64,000 nucleotides of DNA, from IMG/VR virus record IMGVR_UViG_3300009159_000033. The stretch is one strand, 5' to 3'. Source of the DNA: a virus. The notes beneath the pieces were generated by a model that did no database searches, had not been told where the DNA came from, and saw nothing but the letters and a program-made list of their open reading frames with translations. Shown in pieces: positions 17,139-61,364 of the stretch (positions within the stretch are counted from its first letter, which is position 1; every line of letters starts with the position of its first letter). The translations under genes were made by a program, and so were the position numbers.

Positions 17139-18287
17139 ATGGCTAACATTCCTAAACTGCGATTGATGCTTGCTCGGCTGGAGAAAGAAGCTGCAGTAAC
17201 CAAGGCAGAGCTACCATGGCGAGACAGAGTTGAGGTCTACACTCAAAACCCCAAGGGCAAGATCTATGGTGGCATTTGGGACAATGACAAGTCCTTTGCC
17301 CTCCCTGGCGGTGGTATTGACGAAGGTGAGGATCCTTTAGTAGCTGCTTTGAGAGAGCTTAAGGAAGAGACAGGCATTACTGCCAAGAATCCTAGGTTGC
17401 TCCCTATTGATCCCGTAGACAGTCCTTGGAGTGATGCTCATAGAGCTAAGATTAAACGCAACTTCGCTGGTTCTAGAACGCACTTTGTTTTAGCGGACGC
17501 TATGGGTAGACGAGGTAACAAGAACTTAGATGTCTGGAATGCTTCTAATAGGGGTTATTATACACCAGCCAAAGCCATTGATATCATGAACAGCAACACT
17601 AATTACATGGCTCCTACAGCTGCTGCTGCTCGGCTCAAAGCTTTGCAGCATATCCAGTCCCTAGCCATGGCAGCAGCTAAAGAAAAGTCAGCCGCTCCAA
17701 TGAACCTATACTCTTACATTCCAAGTAGTTCTATCGAGCATGTAAAAAAGCATGGACTGTTATCGGGAAACGAATTAGCAAAGCCCGAAAATAGGCACTT
17801 GTTAGACATAGCTAGACCAGATGGAGATGCAGACAGATGGCTCAAAGAAAGGGATGCAAGATTAGCTAAGTCTCCATGGACAAACTCTTATAACGGCCCC
17901 TCTGCTTTCTTTGGGGACATAGACGCTGGGAAAATCCACGATAAGCACCCAATCAAGAAGTTTGATACAACTAGGGCTGTAATTAAATTACGAGAACTAT
18001 TGAGGGACTACCCCGCTACAAAGATGGAAGGTAGCGAATTGATTCCATTCTCAGACACTACTTACGATGCCTTAGATGAAAAAGGTCAAAATGAATTTGT
18101 GAATAAACGGCATCATACGCTATCATTGGACGAGATTAAGGCATTGCTGACGAGGGGTCAAAACCCGAAAGATATGTGGAAAGACTTCAAGGACACAGAA
18201 GGTAAGTACTACGCATCAGACGTGCCACATGCACAAGTTGTTACACCTATGGGAAAGATACCTTCTAAATACATTGAGTTTAAATAA
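17139..18287 (+). CDS. Nudix hydrolase fused to a second, possibly ADP-ribosyltransferase-like, domain
   Basis: Nudix box GGGIDEGEDPLVAALRELKEETG; linker KEKSAA; then LYSY...IEHVKKHGLLS and GKIPSKYI. Confidence 0.7.
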   Translation: MANIPKLRLMLARLEKEAAVTKAELPWRDRVEVYTQNPKGKIYGGIWDNDKSFALPGGGIDEGEDPLVAALRELKEETGITAKNPRLLPIDPVDSPWSDAHRAKIKRNFAGSRTHFVLADAMGRRGNKNLDVWNASNRGYYTPAKAIDIMNSNTNYMAPTAAAARLKALQHIQSLAMAAAKEKSAAPMNLYSYIPSSSIEHVKKHGLLSGNELAKPENRHLLDIARPDGDADRWLKERDARLAKSPWTNSYNGPSAFFGDIDAGKIHDKHPIKKFDTTRAVIKLRELLRDYPATKMEGSELIPFSDTTYDALDEKGQNEFVNKRHHTLSLDEIKALLTRGQNPKDMWKDFKDTEGKYYASDVPHAQVVTPMGKIPSKYIEFK

Positions 18288-40680: not shown

Positions 40681-40890
40681 ATGCAGCAAGATAAAGGATT
40701 GACGGCACGGGAACGAGAGATAGTCATACTAATCAGCAAAAACTTAAAGTATAAAGACATTGCGATAAAGCTTAATCTTGGCTATGAAACAATTAAGACT
40801 TATGTTAAACGTATTCGTAAAAAACTAAACCTTTCCTCCAAGCTAGAGGTAGGGTTGTGGGGTTACAAACAAGGGTGGACAGAAGGTTAA
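40681..40890 (+). CDS. Stand-alone LuxR/GerE-type HTH regulator
   Basis: LTAREREIV...YKDIA.KLNLGYETIKTYVKRI..KL. Confidence 0.85.
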   Translation: MQQDKGLTAREREIVILISKNLKYKDIAIKLNLGYETIKTYVKRIRKKLNLSSKLEVGLWGYKQGWTEG

Positions 40891-47955: not shown

Positions 47956-49071
47956 ATGGATAAGCATGTGGCATACGATAGCGAGTTACCTAATTTAAAT
48001 GTTGAACAGACTCTAGATTTAGGGCTCTACGCTGATTTTCCCGGCACTATTGATTACTTGGCCGAGAAGTGTGCTGCCCCTGCTCAAATCATAAGACGGA
48101 TAGTTTCTCCTTTATACACAAAAACAGATATAGGTATTTACTGGAATCCAGCACTTGAAAAGGCTGGCATGTATGTGAGACCAGTATTAAATCAAGAAGA
48201 GTTTGATTGGGGACTGCAGCTTTTAACGGAGAAGCTTGGTGCAGACCGAGTGCATTCCGAACCTTTGACACCTTACGATTTACATGACTGGTGGGTAAAG
48301 GTAGCTTACTCTCCAACTATACGACGATTAGGAGAACTAGCTCAATTCTTTCCAAGCAAGGACATTCCCGGCTATGGTGGACGACCTATTGCAGCTATGG
48401 TTGCCAGCGGGCTCATAGGTACAGGTCTTGGCTATGGCGCAGGTTGGTTAGGAGAAAAGGTATTGCCAGAGTGGGCACAGACCAAAGGCACACTGCGTAA
48501 GCGTTTAGCGTTGCTTGGTGGTGTAGGCGGAGCTTTAGTAGGTTCAATGCCTGGGTTAGTAAATTTGCATGAAGGTCGAGAATTTAACGATCCAACTCTT
48601 TTTAAAGGTTTTCCCGAAGATGGGTTTGAGGATAAGTTACCTACCTCTGTAAGGTATAAAGAAGCAGTGGCCAACTTTATATCAAAGCAAGCTGATACTG
48701 CTTTTGGAAGCATCGGCGGGCCATCTTTTGCAGAGATGCCTCTAATTCGTACAAATGAGCTTGGACAAGTGCTTTGGGGGACTAACGCAAGCCCTCAAAC
48801 CACCGCTATGACAATGGGTGCAGTATATGGGGCAGGGCAGATGCAAGATCCCAATTCAAGACCCGGAATAGTAACTCCGCACCAAGTTGGGTTGTTTGGT
48901 ATGGCCATGGGGGCCGCAGGTGGCGGGCTCCAAGGCTATTTAACAGGACGTACAGTTGGCTATGGGCTTGGACTGCTAACTGGAATGCCTGGCGGAACGC
49001 AAGCTACATTAGGGCAAACTGGGGCTACCCTAGGTGTAATTAATAGTATAGTGCCTCGACTTTTTAACTAA
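47956..49071 (+). CDS. KxA-motif protein with glycine zippers, probable virion protein
   Basis: EKCA, VKVA, SKQA; GLIGTGLGYGAG and GAAGGGLQGYLTG...GYGLG. Confidence 0.55.
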   Translation: MDKHVAYDSELPNLNVEQTLDLGLYADFPGTIDYLAEKCAAPAQIIRRIVSPLYTKTDIGIYWNPALEKAGMYVRPVLNQEEFDWGLQLLTEKLGADRVHSEPLTPYDLHDWWVKVAYSPTIRRLGELAQFFPSKDIPGYGGRPIAAMVASGLIGTGLGYGAGWLGEKVLPEWAQTKGTLRKRLALLGGVGGALVGSMPGLVNLHEGREFNDPTLFKGFPEDGFEDKLPTSVRYKEAVANFISKQADTAFGSIGGPSFAEMPLIRTNELGQVLWGTNASPQTTAMTMGAVYGAGQMQDPNSRPGIVTPHQVGLFGMAMGAAGGGLQGYLTGRTVGYGLGLLTGMPGGTQATLGQTGATLGVINSIVPRLFN

Positions 49072-49087
49072 GTATAAGGAGATAGTT

Positions 49088-49519
49088 ATGGCTACAGTAC
49101 AAGAACAATTGGAACAAACAATCCTTGCAATGATTGATCGTTACAAAGAATACACAGCAGACGGAAAAATAACTTATTCAGAAGTGCTTGGGTTGTTGTA
49201 CAACGGGGCAGCAACCCTTGTGCGACTTGTAGAAATAGCTGGGCAGGGCAGCCGTGCAGAAAAAAAGCAGCTAGTGTTAGCAGGGCTTGATAAGTTTTAC
49301 GATACCGTAATTGCTCCAATCGACATCATTGGTGTTCCTAATATGCTTGAGCCCATGGTTGATTCCACTATAAAGTCATTGTTACTTTCTACAGTTGATG
49401 GGGCTACTGATTCTATATTTAATGTGTTTGAAAAGATGGGCTGGATAGCTGAAGATAGCGGTAATGAGCCTCATGCTGTTAAAATGGCAGCAAGGGCTAA
49501 GCCTGTTATGATTTTTTAA
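49088..49519 (+). CDS. Hypothetical helical protein
   Basis: 143-aa ORF, SD aaggag. Confidence 0.6.
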   Translation: MATVQEQLEQTILAMIDRYKEYTADGKITYSEVLGLLYNGAATLVRLVEIAGQGSRAEKKQLVLAGLDKFYDTVIAPIDIIGVPNMLEPMVDSTIKSLLLSTVDGATDSIFNVFEKMGWIAEDSGNEPHAVKMAARAKPVMIF

Positions 49520-49532
49520 ATTCTAGATTTTA
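49517..49532. promoter_or_regulatory. 16-bp palindromic site TAAATTCTAGATTTTA
   Basis: Starts on the stop codon of 49088, 9 nt before ATG 49542. Confidence 0.7.
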
Positions 49533-49541
49533 AGGTGTGAT

Positions 49542-49940
49542 ATGACTGTATTGCTTGGAATGAGTGGCGGAGTTGTTTTCTTTGGTCCTCGGACTAATCC
49601 AAAAGCGGTTCGTTGGTGGGCTGAACGAGGACAACTCCACTGGGAAGATTCTCGAGACAACAACTATGGAGTGGTGTCTATTCGAGAATTTCTTCTGCGG
49701 TTGCAAGGCATTAACGATATGATGTCTAATGGACGCAGTAAGGATAATGAAGGTTTTATGCACCAAGATGAGTTGGAACGGCATATGCGTTTCATCGAAC
49801 AAGCATTAGACTTAGTACATAAAGCAAGGGAGCAAGGTGCTCCTGATGATCCTACGGCGCAGAGACACAAGGCAATGAGTTTGCCTGTTACTGTAGTCAT
49901 GCCGTCTTGTTTAACTAGTGGCAAAAGTGTTGCGTTCTAG
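49542..49940 (+). CDS. Hypothetical protein
   Basis: 132-aa ORF, SD aaggtg. Confidence 0.6.
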   Translation: MTVLLGMSGGVVFFGPRTNPKAVRWWAERGQLHWEDSRDNNYGVVSIREFLLRLQGINDMMSNGRSKDNEGFMHQDELERHMRFIEQALDLVHKAREQGAPDDPTAQRHKAMSLPVTVVMPSCLTSGKSVAF

Positions 49941-49951
49941 GAGATTATTTA

Positions 49952-50332
49952 ATGCAAGTACATGAAGCATTTAAACTTGGGTTTTTATCTAGGTGTGTCG
50001 AAGAGGGAATGAATCCCGAGCAGACACATGGTTTGTCTAAAATGGCTGCAAGCTTATTTAGCCCAATGGGTGAAGTGCGTAACGCTGTTGGAACTCTTGG
50101 GGACATGGCCCCGTATTTAGCGGCAGGATTGGCAATTCCGCCTGCCCTTGGCGGTCTTGCTGCCTACTTTGCTAACCAAGCTACAGACACAGAAAGCAGT
50201 CAAGGCGTAGATAATATTAAGCGGCAGGAATTGCAAGAAACTTATGAAAGAATGGCTGGGCAGCTGCAAAGGCAGAAAGAACGACAAGATTATAAAGCAA
50301 AGCGTAAGAGTACTGGGCGTATTTTCCTGTAA
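49952..50332 (+). CDS. KxA-leader protein with a hydrophobic segment and coiled coil
   Basis: Leader FKLGFLSRCVEEGMN...SKMA; LAAGLAIPPALGGLAAYF. Confidence 0.55.
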   Translation: MQVHEAFKLGFLSRCVEEGMNPEQTHGLSKMAASLFSPMGEVRNAVGTLGDMAPYLAAGLAIPPALGGLAAYFANQATDTESSQGVDNIKRQELQETYERMAGQLQRQKERQDYKAKRKSTGRIFL

Positions 50333-50347
50333 CCGGAAGAGGCTAAG

Positions 50348-50722
50348 ATGGCTAATAGTTTAGTGAAGTTTACCAACCGAAAAGAAGGTAACGAGCGAGG
50401 CCAATTGTTTTGGGATCGTGCGGATGTAGATGGTCTGCCTTTCCGAGGACATCAAGCACCCCTATACCGCAACGAAGAGTATGAAGACAGACTAGTACGA
50501 GTAGCTGACCCAAAAAACGCTACTTTCTACACTGGGGATAACGAACAGAACTTGGCCTATTTAAAAGTCATGGATGGTGTGGCAAATTCTTGGTATCAGT
50601 TGGTGTTTATCGAAAGATGGCGAGAAGAGAAAGATAAGCATCATTACATCTACGCAGAGTGGCTCGAATATTTCTTAGAAGATGGTAATCCCTGCTTGAT
50701 GCCTTCTTCCTCTACCCCATAA
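50348..50722 (+). CDS. Hypothetical protein
   Basis: 124-aa ORF, SD gagg. Confidence 0.6.
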   Translation: MANSLVKFTNRKEGNERGQLFWDRADVDGLPFRGHQAPLYRNEEYEDRLVRVADPKNATFYTGDNEQNLAYLKVMDGVANSWYQLVFIERWREEKDKHHYIYAEWLEYFLEDGNPCLMPSSSTP

Positions 50723-50726
50723 GGAT

Positions 50727-51509
50727 ATGGACATGAATAAGACAAGCGCAAAAAAGTTATTGAAACAAATTAAAGTTGAAAAATCTGCAGCAACACCAAT
50801 TGGTGCGCTCGGTGATGATCTTAGAACGCAAGTTAATCAACAAATGCAATCTGATGCAATTAAAACTATTCTTAAGGCAGTAGCATTTGCAGCAGGAACT
50901 GGAGCTGCAGTTAGAGGAGTTACCGGACTTTTTGAAGGGCCAAGAAACCCTAAAAAAGGCCCGCGCGTAATTGATATGCCGGTAGCATATCCAAAAGAAA
51001 AGAATGCAATAGATTCAAATTCTAGAGCGACTTCTCCTTATGGTTTAGACTACTTTTTACCTAGCCTTGTGGTAGGTGCTCCACTCGCTGCTTATGGTGG
51101 CTGGAAAGGTGTAGATCTTTTGCTAAACAAAGTAAAGGAACGAGAAAGCAAAGCAAAGCTTGAATCTTCAAAAAAGAAATACGAGGAAGCTTTACTTGGA
51201 GCATACAAGCAAGGAACTGATGATTGCTTAGACCAGGCATTTTCTGGATATAGTCAAAAAGCGGCATTAGATCCTATTGGTGCCATTTCTGACAAATTTA
51301 ATTCTACTTTTCCAAATGCTTCTGGGCTTGGTAAAGGACTAGCTTTAACTTGGTTGTTGTCTAGTGTTCCTGCTGGTTACTACTTGGTCAACAAAGCTAT
51401 GAAAAAGAATAGTAGGCGCGCCATATTGGAAGAGGCTGTCGAAGAAAGAGCACGTCGGCAAGCATTGACACAACCTCCTGAAATTTACGCTACTCCGCAT
51501 GCCGTATAA
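50727..51509 (+). CDS. KxA-punctuated protein with three hydrophobic segments
   Basis: VEKSAA and SQKAA sites; hydrophobic helices each followed by basic coiled segments. Confidence 0.55.
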   Translation: MDMNKTSAKKLLKQIKVEKSAATPIGALGDDLRTQVNQQMQSDAIKTILKAVAFAAGTGAAVRGVTGLFEGPRNPKKGPRVIDMPVAYPKEKNAIDSNSRATSPYGLDYFLPSLVVGAPLAAYGGWKGVDLLLNKVKERESKAKLESSKKKYEEALLGAYKQGTDDCLDQAFSGYSQKAALDPIGAISDKFNSTFPNASGLGKGLALTWLLSSVPAGYYLVNKAMKKNSRRAILEEAVEERARRQALTQPPEIYATPHAV

Positions 51510-51529: not shown

Positions 51530-54500
51530 ATGCTTCCACTTTCATCTAATTTGTTTGATTCTTCTAATCTCTCGTTGCTAGGGAATACACCTCCTTTAGC
51601 ACAGCCGATGCAGCCATTGCCACCCGCAACTCCATTGCCTAGCTTTCATGAATTTCATGACACTAAGAAGGTCAGATCTATTATCTACGATAGAGTGCTG
51701 CAAGCAGCTCAGCAGCTACAGCCTATGGCTAATGATCGGCATACGCTTAGTTTAACTGGAGTAAATTACCGTGATGGTGATACCGCTAGCAAACAGGAGC
51801 AGAAAGCTGCCATTCTTAATGGTAGATCCCAAGGACGTAGGCTAGAAGGTACTTGGGAGTTAATGGATAACGCAACACAACAAGTAATCGCTTCTAAGAA
51901 ATCAGTTCTTGCCACTGTGCCTCACTTGACGGATCGTGGCACCTTTATCAACAACGGCACTGAGTACATTCTAAGAAATCAACAGCGGTTATTGCCCGGA
52001 GTTTACACCCGCACACGGAACAATGGTGAAATTGAATCCCATGTTAATGTGATGCCTGGGAAAGGTGTATCACAGCGTTATTTCTTAGATCCCGAGAAAG
52101 GCAAATTTAAGCTTAAGGTTGGGCAAGCTTCAGTTGGATTAACTCCTTTGTTAAAAGCTATGGGAGTTACCTCGGAGCAGGCGCAGGAAGCTTGGGGTAA
52201 AGATCTATTCGCTTCTAATTACAATTCGGATGATGCATCCGAATACACACGGCTTAAAGGCATGTTTCTTTCTTCTAAAGAACTAGCTGAGCCAGAAGAA
52301 AAACAAAAACAAGCATTGCTTGCTAAGTTTTCTAAGATGGAAATGGATCCCGAGGTAAATCGTCGCACGCTGGGAAACCCACATTCAGGTGTCACACTAG
52401 ACACATTGATGGACATTACTAAAAAGCTGATAAAGGTTAATAGGAAAGAAGCGGATCCGGATGACAGAGATGCACTTCACTTTCAGCAATTTGTAGGTCC
52501 AGAAGATTTGTTTTCAGAGCGTATTGCCCGAGATAAAGGCGGGGTACGACGTAACCTACTTTGGAAGATGTCGGGCAAAGGTGATTTAAACTCAATGCCA
52601 TCTTCTGCTTTAGACAAACAGGTGAAAAGTGCTTTGCTTGGCAGCGGGCTGGGACAAGCTATTGAAGAAATTAATCCTACAGACATTTATGAAAAGACAA
52701 TGTCTGTTACTCGAGTAGGTGAGGGTGGTATTGGTTCTATGGATGCAATTCCCATGGAATCCAGAAATGTACAGTCAAGTATGCTGGGTTATGTCGATCC
52801 TGTGCGTACTCCCGAGTCGGGTCGTGTTGGGGTGGACACTTATCTGGCTAGGGGATCTCGTAAGGGAAGTGATGGTAAGCTCTATGCTCAGTTTAAGGAT
52901 ATGCGTAACGGGGAAATGACTTTTAAAACTCCTCAAGATGTAGCAGACCTAACTGTCGGTTTTCCCGGAAGCCAAGAAGGCGAAGATGGCCGTGTAGTGG
53001 CGATGCGTGGCGGTAAGATGTTACATGTACCTAAATCAAGCATTGATTTAGAGCTTCCTGACATGGAAGAAGCATTTAATCCTCTTTCCAATGTTATCCC
53101 TATGAAGAGTCAGGTAAAGGGTCAGCGATTAGTTATGGCATCTCGTATGACTACACAAGCATTACCTTTAGCTTCTCCCGAAGCTCCTTTAGTACAGTCA
53201 GCGGTTCCCCGCACAGGTGGCAAACAAAGTTATGAAGAGCTATACTCGGCTGGGATGGGAGCTTTAAGAGCTTCCCAAGGGGGCACAGTTACCTCCGTGA
53301 CAGATGAAGAGATTAAAGTGCGGAATGAAGATGGAACCGAGGAAACGCACGAACTTTATCACAACTTTCCTTTTAATCGTAAAACCTTTTTTCATCAAAC
53401 CGCTGCAGTTCAACCTGGCGACACATTTAAGCCAAACCAGTTGTTAGCAAGTTCTAACTTTACAAACAAGACAGGAACAATGGCTTTAGGTACAAATGCA
53501 CGTACCGCTTATATCCCATGGCAGGGTAAGAACTTTGAAGATGCAATTGTCATCTCAGAAAGTTTTGCAAAGAAGACAGCCTCTTCTCATATGTATCAGC
53601 ATGAGCTGGAAGTGGATGACAAAACACAAGTTGGTAAAAGACAATTTATTCAAGCATTTCCAGCTACATTCAAGAAAGACATATTAGCGAACATAGATGA
53701 TCAAGGAGTGATCAAACCAGGCACAGTAGTTAATTTTGGAGATCCTTTGGTACTAGGGATTACACAAAAGGAAAATGCATACAACAAGGTACATAAGAAG
53801 GGTCAAGCCGGGTTCAACGATGCAGCCGTACTTTGGCAGCATCACGATACTGGTGTTGTTACTGATGTGGTGATGGGTAAGAAGGGTCCGGTCGTTGTAG
53901 TTAAAGCAGAATCTCCAACGCAAGTTGGTGATAAGTTATCTGGTCGTTATGGGGACAAAGGTGTTATTGCGGACATTATTCCAGATAGCGAAATGCCACA
54001 CGATTCAAATAAGTTACCTTTTGAAGTGCTGCTTAACCCTCTTGGTATTATTAGTCGAACTAACCCTGCTCAAATGTCTGAATTGTTTCTAGGTAAAATA
54101 GCGGCTAAGCGTGGTATGCCGATTAAAGTAGATGATTTTGATACTAAAAAAGATATGACTCAATGGGTCATGCAAGAACTGGCTAAAGAAGGTTTGTCGG
54201 ACTTAGAAGACATTATAGACCCATCTAAAGAACAAAAAATTAAAAATATAGCAACTGGTAGTCGTTTCTTTATGAAGCTACATCATACTTCTGAGTCTAA
54301 AGGACAAGGTAGGAGCGGTGGTGCTTACACGATGGAAGATGCCCCAGCCAAAGGTGGCATTGAAGGTTCTAAGCGTATTGGGCTAATGGATGCTAATGCC
54401 TTGCTATCTCACGGAGCCACGGACACACTGCAAGATATCTTCACAGTTAGAAGGCAGAAGAATGATCAGTATTGGATGCAGTACATGTCGGGGTATAACC

Positions 54501-55996
54501 CTAAAGTTACTAAGGTTCCTTTTGCTTATCAGAAGTTTGTAGCCCAGTTACAATCTGCTGGTGTTAATGTAGTCAAGCAGGGAACGCAGACTCAGATTAT
54601 GGCATTAACGGACAAGGATATCGATAACTTAGCTGGGGATCGTGAGCTTAGCAGTGCCGATGGAGTGGAGTGGGGCAACCAGCTTAAAGAGATTAATGGT
54701 GGCTTGTTTGACAAGGCTAAGACCGGCGGGCATGGTGGCACTCGATGGTCGTTTATGCGTTTGCACGAACCTTTACCTAACCCAGTAATGGAAGAACCTA
54801 TCCGTCATATGCTTGGGCTAACACAGAAAAAGTTTGAAGGTATTGTGGCTGGCACAGAATTTTTAGAGAAATATGGAACCGGTACGAAAGCGTTACAAAA
54901 AGCATTAGCAGATCTTAATCCTGCTGCAGAAATTCCTAAAGCTCGGGCTATTATTGCGGCGGGTAGAGGGGCTCAGCGGGATGAGGCAATTCGTAAACTT
55001 GGTTATTTTAAATCGGCACAGAAACTTAATTTGCAGCCTGCAGACTACATGCTGACCAAAGTTCCAGTTCTTCCCCCAATGTTTCGTCCAGTTAGCTTGA
55101 TGAGCAACGGCATGCCATTGGTTAACGATGCTAATCACCTTTACAAAGAACTGTTTGAGGCTAATCAGAATTTTAGCAAAATGCAGCAAGAAGTAGGGGA
55201 AGAGGCTTCGGGATCGGAGCGTCTTTCCACCTATCAAGCATTTAAAGCGGTGACTGGTCTAGGAGATCCGATTAGTGCAAAAAGCCAAGAGAAGAATGTT
55301 CGTGGGGCTTTAAAAAATGTGTTTGGTGCAAGTCCTAAGTTTGGGATTGTGCAACGTAAACTGATTTCTTCTACAGTAGACAATGTGGGCCGAGCGGTAA
55401 TTACTCCAAATCCGGAATTGGACATGGACTCGGTAGGGCTACCCGAAGACAAGGCATTTAAGGTCTATGAGAAATTTGTTACTAGAAGATTGGTGCGACA
55501 AGGCATGTCTATGCTACAGGCTCGTACTCAATTAGAAGATAAGACTCCAGTAGCACGCAAGTTCTTGCTTGAAGAGATGGAGCATCGTCCTGTATATATT
55601 AGTCGTGCTCCTGTTTTGCATAAGTTTGGGATTATGGCAATGAGACCAAGATTGACTAAAGGAAATACCTTACAAGTGAGCCCTTTAATTGTAAAAGGGT
55701 TTGGTGCTGACTTTGATGGCGACACCATGAACTATCATGTGCCAAGTACGGAAAAAGCTAGGCAAGAGGCTTTTGATCGTTTGTTACCTAGTCGTAATCT
55801 TTTTAGCATAGGGGATATGAAATCTGTTATGCATGCCCCTGCTAATGAATACATTGGGGGTTTGTTTATGGGTACAGATCCTTCTCGTAAATCTGATCGA
55901 CCAGTACGGATTTTTCAGAACATACAAGATGTAAGGCGAGCACATGCGCGCGGAGATATTTCAATCAACGATCCGGTACGAATTTTAAATGGGTAG
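51530..55996 (+). CDS. rpoBC: Multi-subunit RNA polymerase beta subunit fused to the N-terminal half of beta'
   Basis: beta motifs GTFINNGTE, DPVRTPESG, NFEDAIVIS, GDKLSGRYGDKG, LNPLG, MKLHH; beta' motifs VPVLPPMFRP, GRAVI, SRAPVLH, catalytic GADFDGD at 55703-55723. Confidence 0.95.
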   Translation: MLPLSSNLFDSSNLSLLGNTPPLAQPMQPLPPATPLPSFHEFHDTKKVRSIIYDRVLQAAQQLQPMANDRHTLSLTGVNYRDGDTASKQEQKAAILNGRSQGRRLEGTWELMDNATQQVIASKKSVLATVPHLTDRGTFINNGTEYILRNQQRLLPGVYTRTRNNGEIESHVNVMPGKGVSQRYFLDPEKGKFKLKVGQASVGLTPLLKAMGVTSEQAQEAWGKDLFASNYNSDDASEYTRLKGMFLSSKELAEPEEKQKQALLAKFSKMEMDPEVNRRTLGNPHSGVTLDTLMDITKKLIKVNRKEADPDDRDALHFQQFVGPEDLFSERIARDKGGVRRNLLWKMSGKGDLNSMPSSALDKQVKSALLGSGLGQAIEEINPTDIYEKTMSVTRVGEGGIGSMDAIPMESRNVQSSMLGYVDPVRTPESGRVGVDTYLARGSRKGSDGKLYAQFKDMRNGEMTFKTPQDVADLTVGFPGSQEGEDGRVVAMRGGKMLHVPKSSIDLELPDMEEAFNPLSNVIPMKSQVKGQRLVMASRMTTQALPLASPEAPLVQSAVPRTGGKQSYEELYSAGMGALRASQGGTVTSVTDEEIKVRNEDGTEETHELYHNFPFNRKTFFHQTAAVQPGDTFKPNQLLASSNFTNKTGTMALGTNARTAYIPWQGKNFEDAIVISESFAKKTASSHMYQHELEVDDKTQVGKRQFIQAFPATFKKDILANIDDQGVIKPGTVVNFGDPLVLGITQKENAYNKVHKKGQAGFNDAAVLWQHHDTGVVTDVVMGKKGPVVVVKAESPTQVGDKLSGRYGDKGVIADIIPDSEMPHDSNKLPFEVLLNPLGIISRTNPAQMSELFLGKIAAKRGMPIKVDDFDTKKDMTQWVMQELAKEGLSDLEDIIDPSKEQKIKNIATGSRFFMKLHHTSESKGQGRSGGAYTMEDAPAKGGIEGSKRIGLMDANALLSHGATDTLQDIFTVRRQKNDQYWMQYMSGYNPKVTKVPFAYQKFVAQLQSAGVNVVKQGTQTQIMALTDKDIDNLAGDRELSSADGVEWGNQLKEINGGLFDKAKTGGHGGTRWSFMRLHEPLPNPVMEEPIRHMLGLTQKKFEGIVAGTEFLEKYGTGTKALQKALADLNPAAEIPKARAIIAAGRGAQRDEAIRKLGYFKSAQKLNLQPADYMLTKVPVLPPMFRPVSLMSNGMPLVNDANHLYKELFEANQNFSKMQQEVGEEASGSERLSTYQAFKAVTGLGDPISAKSQEKNVRGALKNVFGASPKFGIVQRKLISSTVDNVGRAVITPNPELDMDSVGLPEDKAFKVYEKFVTRRLVRQGMSMLQARTQLEDKTPVARKFLLEEMEHRPVYISRAPVLHKFGIMAMRPRLTKGNTLQVSPLIVKGFGADFDGDTMNYHVPSTEKARQEAFDRLLPSRNLFSIGDMKSVMHAPANEYIGGLFMGTDPSRKSDRPVRIFQNIQDVRRAHARGDISINDPVRILNG

Positions 55997-56068
55997 GCAA
56001 TATATCTCTATCCTAGATTTTGATTAGAACTTAGAATCATAAGATGAGATCACACAAGGAGTATGTTT

Positions 56069-56791
56069 ATGGCAGTTAATTTGGAATTGTTAAAGATGGC
56101 CCGACAACATGTAGGAAAACGCCATCTATCTAAATATGCATTTGTTGCAGCAGGTGACCCAGCTATGGGTGCTCCTATGCCTTCTGGCGGTGCTCCTCCT
56201 ATGGATCCTTCCATGGGTGGCGGTGCTCCACCTCCTGACCCTTCAATGGGTGGTGCTCCTCCTATGGATCCTTCTATGGGCGGTGGTGCTCCTCCTATGG
56301 ATCCTTCTATGGGTGGTGGTGCTCCACCTCCTCCCCCTATGGACCCAATGGCAGCAATTATGCCAATGGTTCAACAGGCAGTACAACAAGCAATGTCGGC
56401 TAATGGTGGTGGGCAACCGCAAGGTGCGGGCCCTGGGCTTAAACCTAAAATTGACATAAATGTTGAAATTGTACAAATTAAAAAGATGCTTGCTAAAATT
56501 ATTGATGCTCTTGGTATCCATGTGCCTGTGTCTGATATGGTGGTAACACCCGAAGATTTAAACCAGATTGCACAAGGTGGACCAGGCTTGGCAGCAGCTA
56601 CTCCCGATGGTAAGTCGGGTGGCGGTCTTGGGCAGATTGCCCCTATTTCTCCGATCAAGGCTGCTGAAGCGTGGGAAAGTGGCACAGCTTTTAGTTTATC
56701 AGCTGACTACTATCCTCAGCAGCCTTCTAATAAAAATGGCAGTGTAGCTGCAATGGCTACTGCTCTTTTAATGCGTAATAATAACAAGTAA
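56069..56791 (+). CDS. Pro/Gly/Met-rich repeat protein between the RNAP genes
   Basis: KMA/KYA leader, (GGAPPMDPSMG)n, then a short helical region. Confidence 0.6.
   Translation: MAVNLELLKMARQHVGKRHLSKYAFVAAGDPAMGAPMPSGGAPPMDPSMGGGAPPPDPSMGGAPPMDPSMGGGAPPMDPSMGGGAPPPPPMDPMAAIMPMVQQAVQQAMSANGGGQPQGAGPGLKPKIDINVEIVQIKKMLAKIIDALGIHVPVSDMVVTPEDLNQIAQGGPGLAAATPDGKSGGGLGQIAPISPIKAAEAWESGTAFSLSADYYPQQPSNKNGSVAAMATALLMRNNNK
56186..56349 (+). repeat. In-frame tandem repeat, 30-33-nt unit, about 4.5 copies
   Basis: GGTGCTCCTCCTATGGATCCTTCTATGGG units. Confidence 0.9.
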
Positions 56792-56804
56792 AGGGGTTCA
56801 GCGT

Positions 56805-57029
56805 ATGTTCATCGTGGAGGTTATTGAAAGTATTGGTAAGCCTCCACTTAGGATACCTGCTTCGCAGGTTGTAGTTCGAATGCAAGATGGTACTCCAGTA
56901 AGTGTAGCTGCACTTTTTGGAAGTGCTACTAGTGTGATGGTATCTCATTGTGAAGATGCTAATTTCAATGATAATTTGCGTAAACTAGGTATCAACGAAA
57001 CCGTTATTTCTACTAAAGTACAGGTGTAA
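56805..57029 (+). CDS. Small hypothetical protein
   Basis: 74-aa ORF, SD agggg. Confidence 0.55.
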   Translation: MFIVEVIESIGKPPLRIPASQVVVRMQDGTPVSVAALFGSATSVMVSHCEDANFNDNLRKLGINETVISTKVQV

Positions 57030-57030
57030 T

Positions 57031-57603
57031 ATGGACTCTTCTTTACGATCTTCTGACTACTACTACCGAGACCGAAAACCAGAGGTTATTCCCGAGATTG
57101 TTCCTACTCCTACTTATCAACAATCCTCTAGTATAAACTCTTCTAACAATAAGTATTATGCCGAGATGGGACCACTTGTTGCAGAAGATGTCCCTCTTAT
57201 TGCTAAGCTTCAGATGCCTCCGAAAGAAGTAGAATTGGAGATACTTGATGGTTGCTATGGCCTAGCTACCATACAAGCTGCATTTGAAGACGGAGCCACC
57301 CGCATCATAGTTAAAGCCTATGACTATGTAGTGACTCAACTGCAAGTTGCTGTAGACATGTCAGTGGGTCGTGGAGAATTAACACGAGAGCAAACAGACT
57401 CTATAGTTTTTGTTGTCTTAGCCCCAGAAGCTATTCTTAGCCCAGAAGAAGTAGCTCTACCTATTGTAGATATGCCAGAGGCGACTGCTGTTTTAAACGA
57501 GGCTCCTAAGCCATCTCGTAAAAAAGCAAAGCGTGGCAAGAGTGAGGAAATTACTCTTAAAGATATCGAAGCTGCCTTTGGTGGTGACGATAGTGACGAC
57601 TAA
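57031..57603 (+). CDS. Hypothetical protein
   Basis: 190-aa ORF abutting the previous stop. Confidence 0.55.
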   Translation: MDSSLRSSDYYYRDRKPEVIPEIVPTPTYQQSSSINSSNNKYYAEMGPLVAEDVPLIAKLQMPPKEVELEILDGCYGLATIQAAFEDGATRIIVKAYDYVVTQLQVAVDMSVGRGELTREQTDSIVFVVLAPEAILSPEEVALPIVDMPEATAVLNEAPKPSRKKAKRGKSEEITLKDIEAAFGGDDSDD

Positions 57604-57616
57604 AATCCAGATTTTA
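57601..57616. promoter_or_regulatory. 16-bp palindromic site TAAAATCCAGATTTTA
   Basis: Starts on the stop of 57031, 28 nt before the beta'-C ATG. Confidence 0.7.
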
Positions 57617-57644
57617 AATAATTTGCACACTCTGAGAACTATCC

Positions 57645-60600
57645 ATGTTGAATACGACCGTTGGACAACTGTTAATTAATGATGTCCTTCCGGAAGAGTT
57701 GAGAGACTCCCATCGTGTGCTAGACAAAAAAGGGTTGCAATCTTTACTACAGCAAGTGGCGCGGCAGCACCCAGAGAATTACCGAGATATATCTTTTAAG
57801 CTAAGTAATCTTGGTCAAAGTATAGCACAAGAGCAGGGTGGTATGTCGTTTGGGCTTCGTCACATGCAAGTAAGTAAATCTGCAATAGCTTCCCGCCAGA
57901 AGGTTAGAGCTTCTCTTACTAATATCCTAGCTGACGATTCTTTGACAGACCAAGAGCGAAACGAGCAGATTATTCGTGCAGTTGGCAAGGAAAGTCCAGA
58001 ACAGCAAAAACAAATACTTGCAGAAGCGTTAAAAGACAAGAACCCTCTCGGTATGCAGGTTATGTCGGGTACCCGTGGTAAGTCTATGAATCTAACTAGT
58101 TTGTTAGGTTCAGACATGCTGTATTCGGACCAGCGTGACGATGTAATTCCAATTCCTGTGCTGCGAAGTTACAGCGAGGGGCTGTCTCCTGCCGAGTACT
58201 GGGCTGGAACCTACGGAGCACGCAAAGGCATTATGGCAACTAAGTTTGCCACACAAGATGCTGGATTCTTTAACAAACAACTTAATCAAACTAGTCATAG
58301 ATTGGTAGTCACCGGAGAAGATGCCGAAGAGGCAGACGACGCACCTATCCGTGGATTAGTGGTGGATACTGATGATCCAGACAATGAAGGGGCATTGCTA
58401 GCTCGTAATGTTGGTCCTTACGCTAGAAATACTCCACTTACTCCAAAAATACTGAATCATTTAAAACGGCTTGGTACACCTAAAATCTTAGTGAGATCTG
58501 CCCTAGTGGGCGGGTCTCCCGATGGCGGTGTTTATTCTAGAGATGTAGGTATTAGAGAAACTGGAAAGCTGCCTGGGCTTGGCGAGCAAGTTGGGTTACA
58601 GGCTGCCCACGCTTTAAGTGAACCGATTAGCCAAGGTCAGTTATCTGCAAAGCATTCGGGGGGCGTGGCCGGACAAGAAAAAGCTGTTAGCGGTTTTCAG
58701 TATTTAAACCAATTAGTACAAGTTCCTAAGAAAATGCAAGGAGGGGCAGCCCACTCGTTAATGGATGGAGTGGTGCAGCGTATTGAAGAAGCCCCTGCGG
58801 GCGGGAGCTATGTCACCATTGGGGATAAACAACATTATGTAGGGGCTGGGTTTGAGCTTAAAGTAAAAAAAGGAGATGAGGTAGAGGCTGGTGATGTAAT
58901 TAGTTCAGGAATTCCTAACCCAGCAACTATTACCGAACATAAAGGAATTGGAGAGGGTAGGCGGTATTTTGTTAATGAGTTCCGCAAGGCGATGGGTGAC
59001 AGCGGAATGTTTGGGCACAGACGTAATATTGAGGTGTTAGCCCGAGGTCTTATCAACCATGTAAGGCTGACAGAAGAAACAGATGACCATGTGCCTGACG
59101 ATGTTGTTCCTTACTCTACGCTTGAACACACATACAAGCCACGAGAAGACCACCAGCGGTTAACTCCTAAGCGTGCATTAGGACAGTATCTAGAGCGCCC
59201 TGTACTGCACTACACTATTGGGACCAAGATTCGACCTTCTATGCTTAAGAATTTTGAAGATTTTGAAATTAATGAAATTCCAGTGCATAAGAACCCACCG
59301 CCATTTGAACCAAACATGGTTCGTGGGTTGTATCAAATGCAACATGATCCCGATTGGATGACACAAATGTATGGGTCTGGTCTAAAGAAAAGCTTCTTAG
59401 ACTCTGTGACTCATGGGGCTATCAGCGAAGAACGAGGTACAAGCTTTGTTCCAAGCTTAGCAATGGGTCTTGATTTTGGAGAAGGTAAAAACCATGCGGT
59501 AATAAAACCTCAGCCTAGTTATGAGCTACCGGCATTACCTCCACTTCCTCCCCCTATTCCTTCTACTCCTGCTGCGGCAAAGCCTACAGCTCCTAGCAGT
59601 GCTCCTTTTTTTGGCGGGCGTTTTACCCCTGGGCAAACTAAGCTAGGATTAGATAGCACACCTTCTGTGTCTAAGCCACCTTCTGTCTCTAAGCCACCTG
59701 CTGTAACCAGTATGTCACCAGTTTCTAAGCCTCTTAATACAAACATTATGCCTTCTCCTACTCCAGCCCCCAAAACTGCACCGACTACCCCAAGTTCAAA
59801 CCAATTTAGTAACTTGATGCAAAACGATACTTTTGCACAGCAAACTGGTCAGATGTTAAACGGAGCAGATCCTACAAGTGCACTTATGATGCTAGGAGGC
59901 ATGGCAGGGGGTAGTAATAACATGTCTCAGTTATTTAACTCTGGGCCTTCGCAGCGATTAGCCACAAGCGGTAGTGGCGGTGGAATGTTTGGTAATTTGT
60001 TTAATATGTTTGGGAATAACAATCAAAATGGGCAATCAATTATGCCCAGTGGAGATTACAACTCAGCTACAAATCAAGGCGGGATGTTGAGTAGTAACAC
60101 ATCTGCGGAATCTGCACCCGCATCTTCAGCAGAAGCAGTTCCTGCAGAGGCTACATCAAAAGCTGGTCCAGATATATTTACAGCTGTAGATCATGCACCG
60201 GCGGCCTATACCGCTATAAAAAATACAATCGTACCGCCTAAGGCATTACCTACTCCCCCTGCGCCTACTGCACTAGTGCCTAAAGCACCGCTACCTACAG
60301 CTCCAGCACCTATTACCCCTACTCCACCGATACCCAAAGCACCAATACCCAAAGCACCAATGCCAGCTGCACCAATACCAGCTGCACCCGGAGGTTTACT
60401 TAGTAAAGTAATGCCAGCAGTTTCCACGACTTACAAAACATTGGCTAAAGCAGCCCCTGGTATTGGAATAGCTTTAGAAACTGGGAGTGTCGGTTACGAT
60501 GTTTACAATAAGGGTTGGGATAACACAACTAACGACGCAGCACAAAATATAAGAAACATTGCTTCAGGTAAAGATGGGTTGCACACATTGTGGCAAGCTC

Positions 60601-61364
60601 CTGTTCAAATTTTAAACCCAGTGGCTAACGCACAGCTAATAGCAGGCGGTACAACTCAGACTGCACAGATGATTGGGGAGCAAGCTGGGATAGGTGCTGA
60701 AGCTATTCGAGATAAAGTAACTGGAACTGATGCTATTTCTCGTGCATCGGTTGTGGACAAATCAAAAGTTAACGCAATGGAAGTAGCAAAGCAAAAAGAT
60801 TTAGAAGCACAAAAAGCTAAGCTTCAGCAAGAGTCGCAAAATACAAATATCATGGCTCCCTCCATGATAGAACAAAATAAACAAGAGCAAGCTGGCATCG
60901 ATGCACAAATAGGAGACGCTAAAACTAGACAAGAAAATACGGCAGACGAAACAGCTAAGTGGAGATTAGGTCAGCAGAATTGGTTTGGGAGTGGCGGACA
61001 CAAATTCCGAGATGCCATGCAAAATTCGGTTGCAGCTACGGACACAGAGCTAGCAGATTTAAAAGCTAAAGGTGAATTAGATGCAGTAGGTCAAGCACGG
61101 CAGGAGCAGTTATTAAATAGACAGGCGCAGCGTAAGGCAATGCTGGGTACTTATGACCGAGAAAGCGGTTCCTCGGGTAAGGGATTATTCAGCAAGGATA
61201 TACGCAATCGGGTTAGCGGTCTTAAAGAAAACATTGTGGCAGTTACTGCACAGCTTCGAGATACTTCTCTTCCTCCTGAACAAAGGGCAAAGCTAGAAGC
61301 CCAATTGAAAACTAATAACGAGGACCTTGCTGAGTACCGAGGATGGGCAGAAAGTTCTAAATAA
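57645..61364 (+). CDS. rpoC: RNA polymerase beta' C-terminal half plus a ~620-aa low-complexity/coiled-coil extension
   Basis: TTVGQ, SGTRG, EGLSP, bridge helix GARKG...AGF, trigger loop GEQVGLQAAHALSEP...KH.GG, HRRNIEVL. Confidence 0.92.
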   Translation: MLNTTVGQLLINDVLPEELRDSHRVLDKKGLQSLLQQVARQHPENYRDISFKLSNLGQSIAQEQGGMSFGLRHMQVSKSAIASRQKVRASLTNILADDSLTDQERNEQIIRAVGKESPEQQKQILAEALKDKNPLGMQVMSGTRGKSMNLTSLLGSDMLYSDQRDDVIPIPVLRSYSEGLSPAEYWAGTYGARKGIMATKFATQDAGFFNKQLNQTSHRLVVTGEDAEEADDAPIRGLVVDTDDPDNEGALLARNVGPYARNTPLTPKILNHLKRLGTPKILVRSALVGGSPDGGVYSRDVGIRETGKLPGLGEQVGLQAAHALSEPISQGQLSAKHSGGVAGQEKAVSGFQYLNQLVQVPKKMQGGAAHSLMDGVVQRIEEAPAGGSYVTIGDKQHYVGAGFELKVKKGDEVEAGDVISSGIPNPATITEHKGIGEGRRYFVNEFRKAMGDSGMFGHRRNIEVLARGLINHVRLTEETDDHVPDDVVPYSTLEHTYKPREDHQRLTPKRALGQYLERPVLHYTIGTKIRPSMLKNFEDFEINEIPVHKNPPPFEPNMVRGLYQMQHDPDWMTQMYGSGLKKSFLDSVTHGAISEERGTSFVPSLAMGLDFGEGKNHAVIKPQPSYELPALPPLPPPIPSTPAAAKPTAPSSAPFFGGRFTPGQTKLGLDSTPSVSKPPSVSKPPAVTSMSPVSKPLNTNIMPSPTPAPKTAPTTPSSNQFSNLMQNDTFAQQTGQMLNGADPTSALMMLGGMAGGSNNMSQLFNSGPSQRLATSGSGGGMFGNLFNMFGNNNQNGQSIMPSGDYNSATNQGGMLSSNTSAESAPASSAEAVPAEATSKAGPDIFTAVDHAPAAYTAIKNTIVPPKALPTPPAPTALVPKAPLPTAPAPITPTPPIPKAPIPKAPMPAAPIPAAPGGLLSKVMPAVSTTYKTLAKAAPGIGIALETGSVGYDVYNKGWDNTTNDAAQNIRNIASGKDGLHTLWQAPVQILNPVANAQLIAGGTTQTAQMIGEQAGIGAEAIRDKVTGTDAISRASVVDKSKVNAMEVAKQKDLEAQKAKLQQESQNTNIMAPSMIEQNKQEQAGIDAQIGDAKTRQENTADETAKWRLGQQNWFGSGGHKFRDAMQNSVAATDTELADLKAKGELDAVGQARQEQLLNRQAQRKAMLGTYDRESGSSGKGLFSKDIRNRVSGLKENIVAVTAQLRDTSLPPEQRAKLEAQLKTNNEDLAEYRGWAESSK

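Follow-up and report, generated by a model that had tools for sequence, protein, structure and literature searches.

In the genome of an uncultured freshwater phage a bacterial-type RNA polymerase is encoded as two chains, both of which start within the stretch of 64,000 nucleotides analysed here (the window). The first gene (P0001, 51530–55996, plus strand), identified by Pfam and PDB matches, has a reading frame of 1488 amino acids made up of a complete beta subunit (residues 1 to about 1016), a linker of four amino acids, and the N-terminal part of beta' (residues from about 1021 to 1488). The second gene (P0002, 57645–61364, plus strand) codes for 1239 amino acids and contains the remainder of beta' plus a non-polymerase tail of about 590 residues. 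Its residues 1–650 (57645–59594, plus strand) represent the beta' C-terminal core, which has the TTVG motif at its start. Pfam domains were Rpb2_3 and Rpb2_6 (E=1.4e-50) in the beta part, Rpb1_1 and Rpb1_2 (E=1.2e-23) in the beta' part of the fusion, and Rpb1_5 (E=1.2e-18) in the second chain, and the PDB matches of the fusion protein had E values of 1.5e-67 for beta and 8.4e-45 for cyanobacterial gamma. A preliminary description of this DNA had put forward the fused and split layout, the nearly linkerless junction, the start of the second gene at the TTVG motif, and three genes between the polymerase genes. All of this is borne out by the two reading frames, by the four-residue linker, and by genes at 56063–56791, 56805–57029, and 57031–57603, the first of which starts at 56063 and not at 56069 as had been given.

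The beta/beta' junction (54536–54622, plus strand), located by its motif coordinates and kept across relatives, extends from the C-terminal motif of beta (residues 1003–1016, nucleotides 54536–54577) to the first beta' motif (residues 1021–1031, nucleotides 54590–54622). Further downstream in the fusion protein lie the clamp helices as well as the double-psi beta-barrel that bears the magnesium-binding aspartate triad, and both catalytic barrels are covalently linked in this chain. The second chain begins at the TTVG motif, includes the bridge helix (58179–58289) and the trigger loop (58581–58673), and extends to the C-terminal part of the clamp. The catalytic elements, i.e., the ED and GDK..KG motifs of beta, the aspartate triad, the bridge helix, and the trigger-loop histidine, are intact and conserved. 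As had been noticed before, the trigger loop reads QGQLSAKH (residues 330–337, nucleotides 58632–58655); relative to E. coli beta', it has lost the arginine and methionine by which bacterial polymerases contact the NTP substrate. The loop carrying the aspartate triad reads GADFDGD (55703–55723, plus strand, residues 1392–1398). Throughout the clade the triad is unchanged and the first position of the loop varies between N, G, and A, with NADFDGD in 75 and GADFDGD in 36 of the 120 closest clusters and AADYDGD in two cultured relatives, Salmonella phage Arash and Vibrio phage D69. The earlier reading of GADFDGD for NADFDGD thus holds for this phage but not as a clade character, and the loop is a sublineage variant. 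Loss of the arginine and methionine together with glycine for asparagine before the triad means that kinetics and sugar discrimination of the enzyme may differ.

Beta' is also divided in cyanobacteria and plastids, where the cut separating RpoC1 (gamma) from RpoC2 likewise falls between the catalytic double-psi barrel and the bridge helix, and cyanobacterial gamma is the best solved beta' match of the beta' N-terminal part. Among the solved structures, residues 1114–1480 of the fusion protein matched residues 184–552 of the 624 residues of gamma, and residues 23–366 of the second chain matched residues 5–365 of RpoC2. The corresponding matches to Streptomyces beta' were residues 1117–1481 to 256–623 and residues 2–491 to 659–1167. 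These mappings place the phage split about 20–65 residues upstream of the cyanobacterial one, with roughly 16–40 residues lost at the break, in agreement with the view that the two splits are near but not identical. The cyanobacterial enzyme further differs from that of the phage in having an unfused beta subunit, alpha and omega subunits, and retained zinc sites. The rpoB-rpoC fusions of Helicobacter and Wolbachia join the C-terminus of beta head-to-tail with the N-terminus of beta' as in the phage. They carry the entire beta' on the same chain, however, and retain alpha, omega, and the zinc sites, so the distinction drawn earlier from whole rpoBC fusions is justified by the separate beta' C-terminal chain.

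The multisubunit RNA polymerases of phiKZ and AR9 also lack alpha and omega and have beta' cut after the double-psi barrel, and one of their enzymes is packaged in the virion (PMC7598289). They differ from the present enzyme, as had been proposed, in that beta is split as well, no beta-beta'N fusion occurs, and two enzyme sets of four to five chains exist; no recognisable sigma homologue is encoded in jumbo-phage genomes (PMC7598289). In sequence they diverge much further, the PHROG matches having E values of 1e-25 or weaker to the jumbo-phage families and of 3e-73 to the bacterial-like one. Uncultured tailed phages that carry beta and beta' genes of bacterial type have been described as the mReC lineage (Weinheimer and Aylward 2020, PMC7481178), to which the polymerase had been provisionally assigned. 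This assignment is not supported, since beta and beta' are tabulated there as separate reading frames, mostly adjacent and of about 1000 and 900 or about 1365 and 1005 amino acids, since the screen demanded a beta' of at least 800 amino acids bearing NADxDGD, which neither chain described here provides as a separate beta', and since a fusion is never mentioned (PMC7481178). One row of that table, Ga0115224_1000088 with genes 80 and 83 of 1487 and 1303 amino acids, might represent the same architecture.

The closest counterparts are found in cultured phages. Salmonella Arash (gp206 and gp216; OQ632216) and Vibrio D69, D148, and D181 show the beta-beta'N fusion at an identical junction, their first chain ends at the same point, and beta' C is separate as here. 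The Arash genes were annotated just as beta and beta', with fusion and split unmentioned (PMC10585845). In this group the zinc-binding domain is likewise swapped for a short loop, and the sigma-like factor, SNF2 helicase, portal, capsid protein, and terminase are homologous. With Arash in particular the terminase, portal, capsid protein, and gp217 helicase are shared, and homologues of gp222, gp233, gp236, gp10, and gp14 occur in addition. The fusion proteins of Arash and D69 are 29–30% identical to P0001 (27–30% for the system overall), the beta' C chains of the group have four cysteines and no C-terminal extension, unlike P0002, and the intervening genes differ, with nine in Arash and two small reading frames in D69.

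The architecture, which had been considered possibly unique, proved common to hundreds of metagenomic phages in addition to these cultured phages with public genomes. Conservation of the junction extends over 15 clade members as well as Arash and D69. In all of the 120 closest 90%-identity clusters the beta and beta' domains reside on one protein of about 1450–1500 amino acids, which in some is longer and contains inteins. The best 150 representatives at 50% identity (E<1e-199) all cross the junction, and wherever the match extends that far their end coincides with that of the query. Relatives occur in at least 525 IMG/VR loci. When 80 of these were surveyed, each had the fusion reading frame, and in 63 beta' C was found downstream on the same strand at a distance of 874–6373 bp. 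No published description or study of the fused-and-split layout was found in the literature. It is a real, widespread, and uncharacterised variant of the phage multisubunit RNA polymerase.

Several features of the bacterial core are missing. At 54698–54754 (plus strand) the clade alignment shows a short TGGHGG-type loop at the site of the beta' N-terminal zinc-binding domain, a deletion judged by comparison with E. coli beta'. The second beta' zinc site is absent from P0002, where all four cysteines are substituted in the alignment to Streptomyces beta' 659–1167. Neither the 1488 nor the 1239 residues of the two chains include a single cysteine; about 30 would be expected in both from a proteome frequency of 1.42% (Poisson P~7e-14), and 94 of 104 fusion proteins in the clade are cysteine-free. 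Other proteins of the phage with no or few cysteines include its major capsid protein, helicase homologue, and sigma-like factor. The flap-tip region of beta (53759–53815, plus strand) is remodelled and about eight residues shorter in HMMER alignments to cyanobacterial and clostridial beta, with the conserved flap-tip helix sequence missing. As the flap tip is the docking site of sigma region 4 in bacteria, canonical docking of this region is doubtful. The preliminary statement that alpha and omega are lacking can be extended to the whole 172.7-kb record (84% complete), in which neither was detected, with controls matched in 14 of 14 genomes. This record, at the same completeness, holds only one RNA polymerase set.

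A sigma factor had also been reported missing, which is correct for the window but not for the genome, as a sigma-70-like reading frame of 245 amino acids is encoded outside it. Sigma70_r3 was matched with 26.7 bits (Pfam cut-off 25.3) and region 4 weakly; the similarity to Arash gp10 has E=1e-17, and some of the 192 homologues share long contigs with fusion genes. Complex prediction of this factor with residues 1040–1488 of the fusion protein yielded a score of 0.56 (best control 0.00), with at least 41% of contacts agreeing between runs and a partner pLDDT of at least 66. Of 80 solved complexes 58 attain the mark applied, as do 2 of 110 mismatched pairs; among those attaining it, seven of the complexes and both mismatches score 0.60 or under. 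Since sigma-beta' complexes have already been solved, this result may reflect structures memorised by the predictor, and it gives a weak indication of docking at this site.

A clade-conserved cassette lying between the polymerase genes, composed of a proline/methionine/glycine-rich protein and a protein of about 75 residues adjoining beta' C, is new here. Its first member (56063–56791, plus strand, 242 amino acids) is of low complexity and lacks cysteine. The family directly follows the fusion gene in many relatives, with orthologues in loci L009 and L016–L020, and most of 69 loci have a reading frame of 209–261 amino acids at this position (27 BLAST-similar, 50 cysteine-free). The second (56805–57029, plus strand, 74 amino acids) belongs to a conserved small-protein family without a match to Pfam or PDB families. 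It is 57–91% identical in close relatives, its family was found by profile in 69 of the 80 IMG/VR loci, and in at least 44 of these 69 its stop lies -17 to +9 nucleotides from the beta' C start. By this linkage alone it is a candidate for an additional polymerase partner. Neither family was detected in Arash or D69. The third gene (57031–57603, plus strand, 190 amino acids), located between the small gene and beta' C, is a lineage-specific insertion present in 7 of the 80 loci; it is predicted to have a compact alpha/beta core (AF2, residues 62–130, pLDDT >90) and an acidic C-terminal tail, and no fold match of the core was obtained at E<=0.001.

The favoured reading, with a probability of roughly 0.7, is that this gene pair specifies the core of a phage bacterial-type multisubunit RNA polymerase, catalytic but with moved chain boundaries, that works as follows. 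The covalent beta-beta'N link would replace the alpha dimer as assembly platform, and the phage's own sigma-70-like factor would provide promoter recognition on the remodelled core. By homology to Arash, core, sigma, and helicase would be packaged into the capsid and injected, and early genes would be transcribed independently of the host. A protein that has to survive outside the cell, and perhaps to refold after passage through the tail, would benefit from being free of cysteine and zinc. The intergenic cassette, especially the protein of about 75 residues, may provide further partners.

Packaging is predicted by homology with Arash, a relative at only 27–30% identity, and a non-virion polymerase is an alternative which we regard as improbable but of some weight. 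Like the nvRNAP of phiKZ it would be made after infection and serve middle or late transcription only, with the host enzyme reading the early genes. The genes upstream of the polymerase, ribonucleotide reductase, polynucleotide kinase, and exonuclease, belong to replication and nucleotide metabolism and are not head genes, and host independence of the phiKZ type needs two polymerase sets (PMC7598289), not the single one seen here. The authors of the Arash study also allowed that non-structural proteins present in large amounts might be carried along into purified particles (PMC10585845). In these virions, however, gp206 had the most spectra of all (3516, 100% coverage), with 1210 for gp216, 467 for gp10, and 1148 for gp217, so that both chains, the sigma homologue, and the SNF2-type helicase rank among the most abundant virion proteins (PMC10585845). 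The lack of cysteine, shared by both chains with the capsid protein and the sigma-like factor, also argues for the packaged enzyme, as enzymes such as RNR have 15–16 cysteines, and so does the gene directly after beta' C, which resembles the Arash structural protein gp218 and is followed by the head module.

Rejoining of the chains by intron splicing or split-intein trans-splicing, which would give one continuous beta-beta' polypeptide of the Helicobacter type, is very unlikely. Mobile elements do often enter these genes: the fusion gene of Vibrio phage D181 is interrupted by a group I intron carrying a homing endonuclease (Rfam, 100.7 bits), and inteins are found in many homologues, one of them within the trigger loop of a relative with 71% identity. 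Between the present genes, however, no Rfam intron was detected at any threshold, the interval contains clade-conserved protein-coding genes, the end of the first and the start of the second chain are both polymerase sequence without split-intein halves, and gp206 and gp216 are two separate virion proteins in Arash (PMC10585845). An artefact in which a chimeric contig or a frameshift produced the apparent fusion and split can practically be dismissed even for a single metagenomic record classed as linear and 84% complete, as the suspected assembly error was not seen when identical contigs from independent freshwater samples were found to span the junction (54178–54622 in sample X2, 54350–54740 in sample X3), the stop codon, and the start of the second gene without any alternative joint, and as the layout recurs in the genomes of four cultured phages and, independently, in hundreds of other assemblies.

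The C-terminal extension of beta' C (59595–61364, plus strand, about 590 amino acids) is absent from most relatives, which stop at about residue 650, with orthologues of 617–657 amino acids in 44 of 46 complete cases. It had only three database matches and gave no Pfam, PHROG, or Atlas lead. Proline/alanine/serine-rich and glycine/asparagine/methionine-rich low-complexity linkers lead to a conserved helical module (residues from about 950 to 1239, nucleotides 60492–61361). The extension is present in the subclade of loci L016, L017, L019, and partly L020, with 33% identity of the C-terminal module in L016.

The window is taken from a 172,719-bp IMG/VR virus record, of which it represents positions 50152-114151 on the minus strand; the record is of the linear class with a CheckV completeness estimate of 84%, and 190 of its 205 ORFs lie on one strand. 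DNA near-identical to the window occurs in freshwater and lake metagenomes. The two polymerase ORFs of the preliminary description were recovered at 51530-55996 (1488 amino acids, P0001, beta fused to the N-terminal part of beta') and 57645-61364 (1239 amino acids, P0002, the C-terminal part of beta', termed beta'-C). An assembly error, against which that description had advised a check, could mimic fusion as well as split. Independent samples and studies supplied Logan contigs that are identical to the window across the fusion junction (54178-54622 in sample X2, 54350-54740 in X3), the stop codon of P0001 (55875-56083 in X2, 55847-56044 in X3) and the start of P0002 (57315-57803 in X3, 57520-57901 in X4), and at these three places no alternative joint was found among the matching contigs, which upholds fusion and split alike. 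The fused and split layout is a genuine, conserved and very widespread variant of the phage-encoded bacterial-type RNA polymerase.

Together the two chains make up a catalytic core of the bacterial type, beta plus beta', for which DNA-templated RNA synthesis is predicted from the sequence. P0001 contains the Pfam Rpb2 domains 3 and 6 and Rpb1 domains 1 and 2, and P0002 contains Rpb1 domain 5. The beta catalytic domain (Rpb2 domain 6, PF00562, E=1.4e-50) and the beta' double-psi barrel with the D-x-D-G-D Mg-binding triad (PF00623, E=1.2e-23) are both present; neither the triad nor the ED and GDK..KG motifs of beta vary across the clade alignment. Residues ~100-1036 of P0001 match solved bacterial beta with E=1.5e-67, and alignment to solved structures places its residues 1114-1480 on residues 184-552 of the 624 amino acids cyanobacterial gamma subunit and residues 23-366 of P0002 on residues 5-365 of cyanobacterial RpoC2. 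Residues 2-491 of P0002 correspond to 659-1167 of Streptomyces beta', and P0001 ends at about Streptomyces residue 630. A linker of four residues separates the C-terminal motif of beta, whose last residue is 1016, from the first beta' motif, which begins with residue 1021. The fusion ORF ends about 90 amino acids past the Asp triad, and in this it aligns with gp206 of the cultured Salmonella phage Arash, with the cultured Vibrio phage D69 and with 15 metagenomic members. The catalytic loop of P0001 indeed reads GADFDGD, but this is not a trait of the architecture as a whole, the residue before the triad being N, G or A across relatives. Of the 120 closest clusters, 75 have N at this position, 36 have G and a few have another residue, and Arash and D69 have A; with N commoner than G, GADFDGD is a trait of the sublineage. 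Bridge helix and trigger loop of P0002 align to Streptomyces beta'. The trigger loop reads QGQLSAKH with its histidine kept, as first described; this histidine is retained across the clade, Arash and D69, and the loop sequence is conserved within the metagenomic clade, where the positions of the Arg and Met carried by the bacterial trigger-loop motif are replaced.

PF00562 and PF00623 occur together in one protein in each of the 120 nearest clusters at the 90%-identity level (53-96% identity); most of these proteins have ~1450-1500 amino acids, and the longer ones contain intein or LAGLIDADG domains. An exhaustive search of 50%-identity cluster representatives with the junction-spanning residues 700-1488 of P0001 yielded a match across the junction in 150 of the 150 best representatives (E<1e-199), and where the match reached the end of the query the protein also terminated there. 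Relatives are encoded in at least 525 IMG/VR loci. In the best 80 of these (38-96% identity) the fusion ORF was present without exception, and in 63 of the 80 the beta'-C gene lay downstream on the same strand, never adjacent, at a gap of 874-6373 bp (median 980 bp); 44 of 46 complete beta'-C proteins were 617-657 amino acids long. The same fusion occurs at 29-30% identity in cultured Arash and the cultured Vibrio phages D69, D148 and D181. In Arash (gp206, 1525 amino acids; gp216, 606 amino acids) and D69 a separate beta'-C gene again lies downstream on the same strand and non-adjacent, and both the junction and the C-terminal end of the first chain fall in the same alignment columns as here, so the rearrangement is older than the divergence of these very distant phages. 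The full phage record and Arash both encode terminase, portal, major capsid protein, an SNF2-type helicase and several structural proteins.

The break had been described as near to but distinct from the cyanobacterial rpoC1/rpoC2 split, and the solved-structure alignments agree: it is not at the gamma/beta' boundary but about 20-65 residues further upstream, P0001 ending at about residue 558-560 of the 624 of gamma and residues 1-22 of P0002 preceding RpoC2 residue 5. Compared with unsplit bacterial beta', about 16-40 residues are absent at the break. The difference from the phiKZ enzymes was likewise confirmed. Enzymes of the phiKZ/AR9 type have beta in an N- and a C-terminal piece, four to five chains and two enzyme sets, whereas here beta is whole and fused and the record holds one RNAP set; their beta' is split after the barrel at a point which coincides with the cyanobacterial site, and the review of these enzymes describes no fusion (PMC7598289).

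Membership in the multisubunit-RNAP-encoding Caudovirales, which had been suggested, found no support when the supplementary table of the respective paper was checked. That group was defined by two distinct ORFs, one for beta and one for beta', each 800 amino acids long or more and the latter with NADxDGD, and the paper lists beta and beta' as separate ORFs and never mentions a fusion (PMC7481178). Membership was rejected, the Asp triad being located here on the beta-containing chain, in the form GADFDGD, and beta'-C having none. Supplementary Data 2 of that paper gives for Ga0115224_1000088 a gene 80 (1487 amino acids) as beta and a gene 83 (1303 amino acids) as beta' (PMC7481178), an entry that might represent the architecture described here, listed as if it were a pair of normal subunits. 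The Arash genes were annotated as beta and beta' without comment (PMC10585845), and a full-text literature search found no description of this layout. The chain architecture is distinctive, and the record shares with the Arash-like fused and split family the junction-spanning ORF, the separate beta'-C, a gp10-type sigma-like factor and common head genes. Two families considered as unfused phage relatives, phrog_24349 (1191 positions) and phrog_25354 (1216 positions), were rejected because their lengths equal those of Firmicute beta and beta' and because the matching 'phage' records, unannotated Listeria, Staphylococcus and Enterococcus contigs, resemble host contamination, which we infer them to be.

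An intron between the two polymerase genes was dismissed, as an Rfam search of the interval yielded no intron at gathering threshold or at E<=1, only a chance miRNA match; the ends of P0001 and P0002 lack split-intein halves. Mobile elements are frequent elsewhere in the family. Many members have one to five inteins at conserved motifs. A LAGLIDADG intein of ~380 amino acids sits in the beta'-C trigger loop of one related locus (L009:16176-19286), between the positions of P0002 residues 333 and 334, and the fusion gene of Vibrio phage D181 is interrupted by a group I intron that carries a homing endonuclease (L021:1689-1969; Rfam 100.7 bits). For phiKZ-type enzymes it has been proposed that mobile elements drive the rearrangement of phage polymerase genes (PMC7598289). 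The intein and intron load fits this idea, which is not to say that it shows the origin of the present split, and such heavy colonisation offers a live view of how these genes get rearranged.

The polymerase has also lost parts. P0001 and P0002 contain no cysteine in 2727 residues as compared to 1.42% in the rest of the phage proteome; at that frequency the 2138 polymerase-homologous amino acids should include about 30 (Poisson P~7e-14). In the clade, cysteine is likewise missing from 94 of 104 intein-free fusion proteins and from 40 of the 46 complete beta'-C proteins. Both zinc-binding sites of beta', of four cysteines each, are gone: a short Gly/His loop, kept even in Arash and D69, takes the place of the N-terminal zinc-binding domain, and in the second site all four cysteines are substituted in the alignment to Streptomyces beta'. 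The tip of the beta flap is shortened by about 8 residues, and its conserved helix sequence is lost. Alpha and omega (PF01000, PF01193, PF01192) were not detected in the 172.7-kb record, 84% complete, by searches which were positive in 14 of 14 control genomes. The cysteine-free or cysteine-poor set of this phage comprises both polymerase chains, a sigma-like factor, the major capsid protein, a 2044 amino acids protein and a homologue of Arash helicase gp217, while its metabolic enzymes have 10-20 cysteines each.

In the virion proteome of Arash the fusion protein gp206 ranks first in spectra (3516, 100% coverage), with 1210 spectra for the beta'-C protein gp216, 467 for the sigma factor gp10 and 1148 for gp217, and its authors allow for early-transcription cargo as well as carry-over (PMC10585845). 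From the Arash virions, and from the cysteine depletion common to polymerase and capsid protein, it appears that the polymerase of the present phage is probably virion-borne. Beta'-C is followed first by a gene whose product resembles structural protein gp218 of Arash and then by the head module; the small flanking genes at 47956-51509 and 61443 matched no Pfam or PHROG family. In Arash, gp217 adjoins beta'-C and is abundant in the virions. The homologue here, an SNF2-related helicase of 507 amino acids with one cysteine and 32% identity to gp217, is encoded at 24447-25970 and may be part of a packaged transcription apparatus. The 2044 amino acids ORF (G000:C1:21830-27964, minus strand, outside the window) has no cysteine (P~2.5e-13) and is the only other large cysteine-free protein of the genome; a homologue was not detected in Arash, and a role as tape measure or ejected protein is possible. 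A further cysteine-free protein, of 382 amino acids with a NUDIX domain (17139-18287, E=2.7e-12), shows depletion like that of virion-type proteins.

All three genes noted earlier between the polymerase chains are present, and two of them belong to a newly found clade-wide cassette and are not random inserts. According to the locus counts this cassette consists of the fusion, a Pro/Met/Gly-rich protein, a small protein, beta'-C and a gp218-like protein. The small gene encodes 74 amino acids (56805-57029), and its family profile found a homologue of 71-95 amino acids in 69 of 80 loci, for example L028:10101-10346 and L033:10135-10371. In at least 44 of these 69 the distance between its stop codon and the start of beta'-C is -17 to +9 nt, frequently with overlap, which suggests co-translation and makes the protein a candidate extra polymerase partner. 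The profile matched nothing significant in Pfam or PDB sequences, the fold predicted from 7 sequences had a mean pLDDT of 49.6, and the family HMM detected no member in Arash or D69; D69 has a 65 amino acids ORF overlapping the beta'-C start. The gene directly after the fusion (56063-56791) encodes 242 cysteine-free amino acids with PMDP-type repeats, and most loci have at this place a Pro/Met/Gly-rich protein of the same design (209-261 amino acids), cysteine-free in 50 of 69 loci and BLAST-similar in 27. The third gene (57031-57603, 190 amino acids) occurs in 7 of 80 loci, is limited to this sublineage and is inserted between the small gene and beta'-C; its confidently predicted core gave in Foldseek only generic Rossmann-like fragments of PDB entries, the best at E=0.011. 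None of the three proteins could be assigned to a known family (Pfam, PHROG) or an informative fold.

Near residue 650, where most beta'-C proteins stop, P0002 continues, as do a few relatives (L016, L017, L019 and partly L020), with an extension that varies between 400 and 660 residues and is in P0002 a cysteine-free non-polymerase tail of about 590 amino acids (59595-61364). It is composed of low-complexity Pro/Ala/Ser and Gly/Asn/Met tracts followed by a conserved helical module at residues ~950-1239, which is 33% identical where the core is 74% identical. Pfam and PHROG searches with the tail gave no match, and its Atlas scores of 0.83 were at chance level. The composition of the 242 amino acids protein is like that of the low-complexity part of this tail.

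The observation that the window has no sigma gene held for the window itself, where only a stand-alone LuxR/GerE-type helix-turn-helix protein of 69 amino acids resembling sigma region 4 was found (40681-40890; Sigma70_r4_2, E=1.3e-8), but not for the genome, which encodes outside the window a cysteine-free sigma-70-like factor of 245 amino acids (G000:C1:17721-18455, minus strand). Its Sigma70_r3 score exceeds the Pfam cut-off and its region 4 score is weak; the factor matches the Arash virion protein gp10 with E=1e-17 and has 192 homologues, some of which share long contigs with fusion genes, and the polymerase is probably sigma-dependent. Complex prediction of the factor with P0001 residues 1040-1488 weakly suggests docking on the beta'-N part, with a score of 0.56 (best control 0.00), which may reflect likeness and not binding, since sigma-beta' complexes have already been solved; contact agreement between runs was at least 41% and partner pLDDT at least 66. 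Of 80 solved complexes 58 attained the mark used for such predictions, as did 2 of 110 mismatched pairs, and scores of 0.60 or below at that mark came from only 7 of those 80 and from both mismatches.

To our knowledge every cellular multisubunit RNA polymerase requires an alpha-like platform to join its two large subunits, and work on phiKZ and AR9 raised the question how a phage polymerase assembles without alpha. The present family offers a different and very common natural answer, with the two catalytic barrels together on a single chain, the mobile elements of the enzyme, bridge helix and trigger loop, on the other, and zinc and cysteine absent. Alpha-less assembly and the roles of the conserved cassette and of the beta'-C tail are what we infer. 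The covalent beta-beta'-N link and the ~75 amino acids protein encoded just ahead of beta'-C as a putative new subunit, perhaps also the Pro/Met/Gly-rich protein, would replace the alpha dimer and omega; the complete absence of cysteine and zinc would be an adaptation for storage in the capsid, passage through the tail and refolding in the host; and the ~590 amino acids tail of beta'-C in this sublineage would act as a packaging or ejection tether, comparable to phage P23-45, in which the RNA polymerase is fused to the tape measure. To this joint reading we give about one chance in four. The availability of cultured Arash (Salmonella) and D69 (Vibrio) makes the questions directly testable, namely the fusion in place of alpha, the action of a sigma-like factor on a core whose flap tip is remodelled, and independence from the host polymerase via virion delivery, and ~30% identity to bacterial RNA polymerase is close enough for residue-by-residue modelling and comparison.

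Scans for sigma-70 promoters and terminators around the genes gave no more than shuffled sequence would lead one to expect. When intergenic k-mers were searched for a motif of phage promoters, only a family of tandem small ORFs outside the window emerged. This array of about 15 short ORFs (G000:C1 ~142900-145900) has a spacing of ~150-230 bp; each ORF begins with the same ATGATAAGAA after a Shine-Dalgarno-like GGAG, and repeats of the hexamers TCTGGG/TCTTGG are interspersed.
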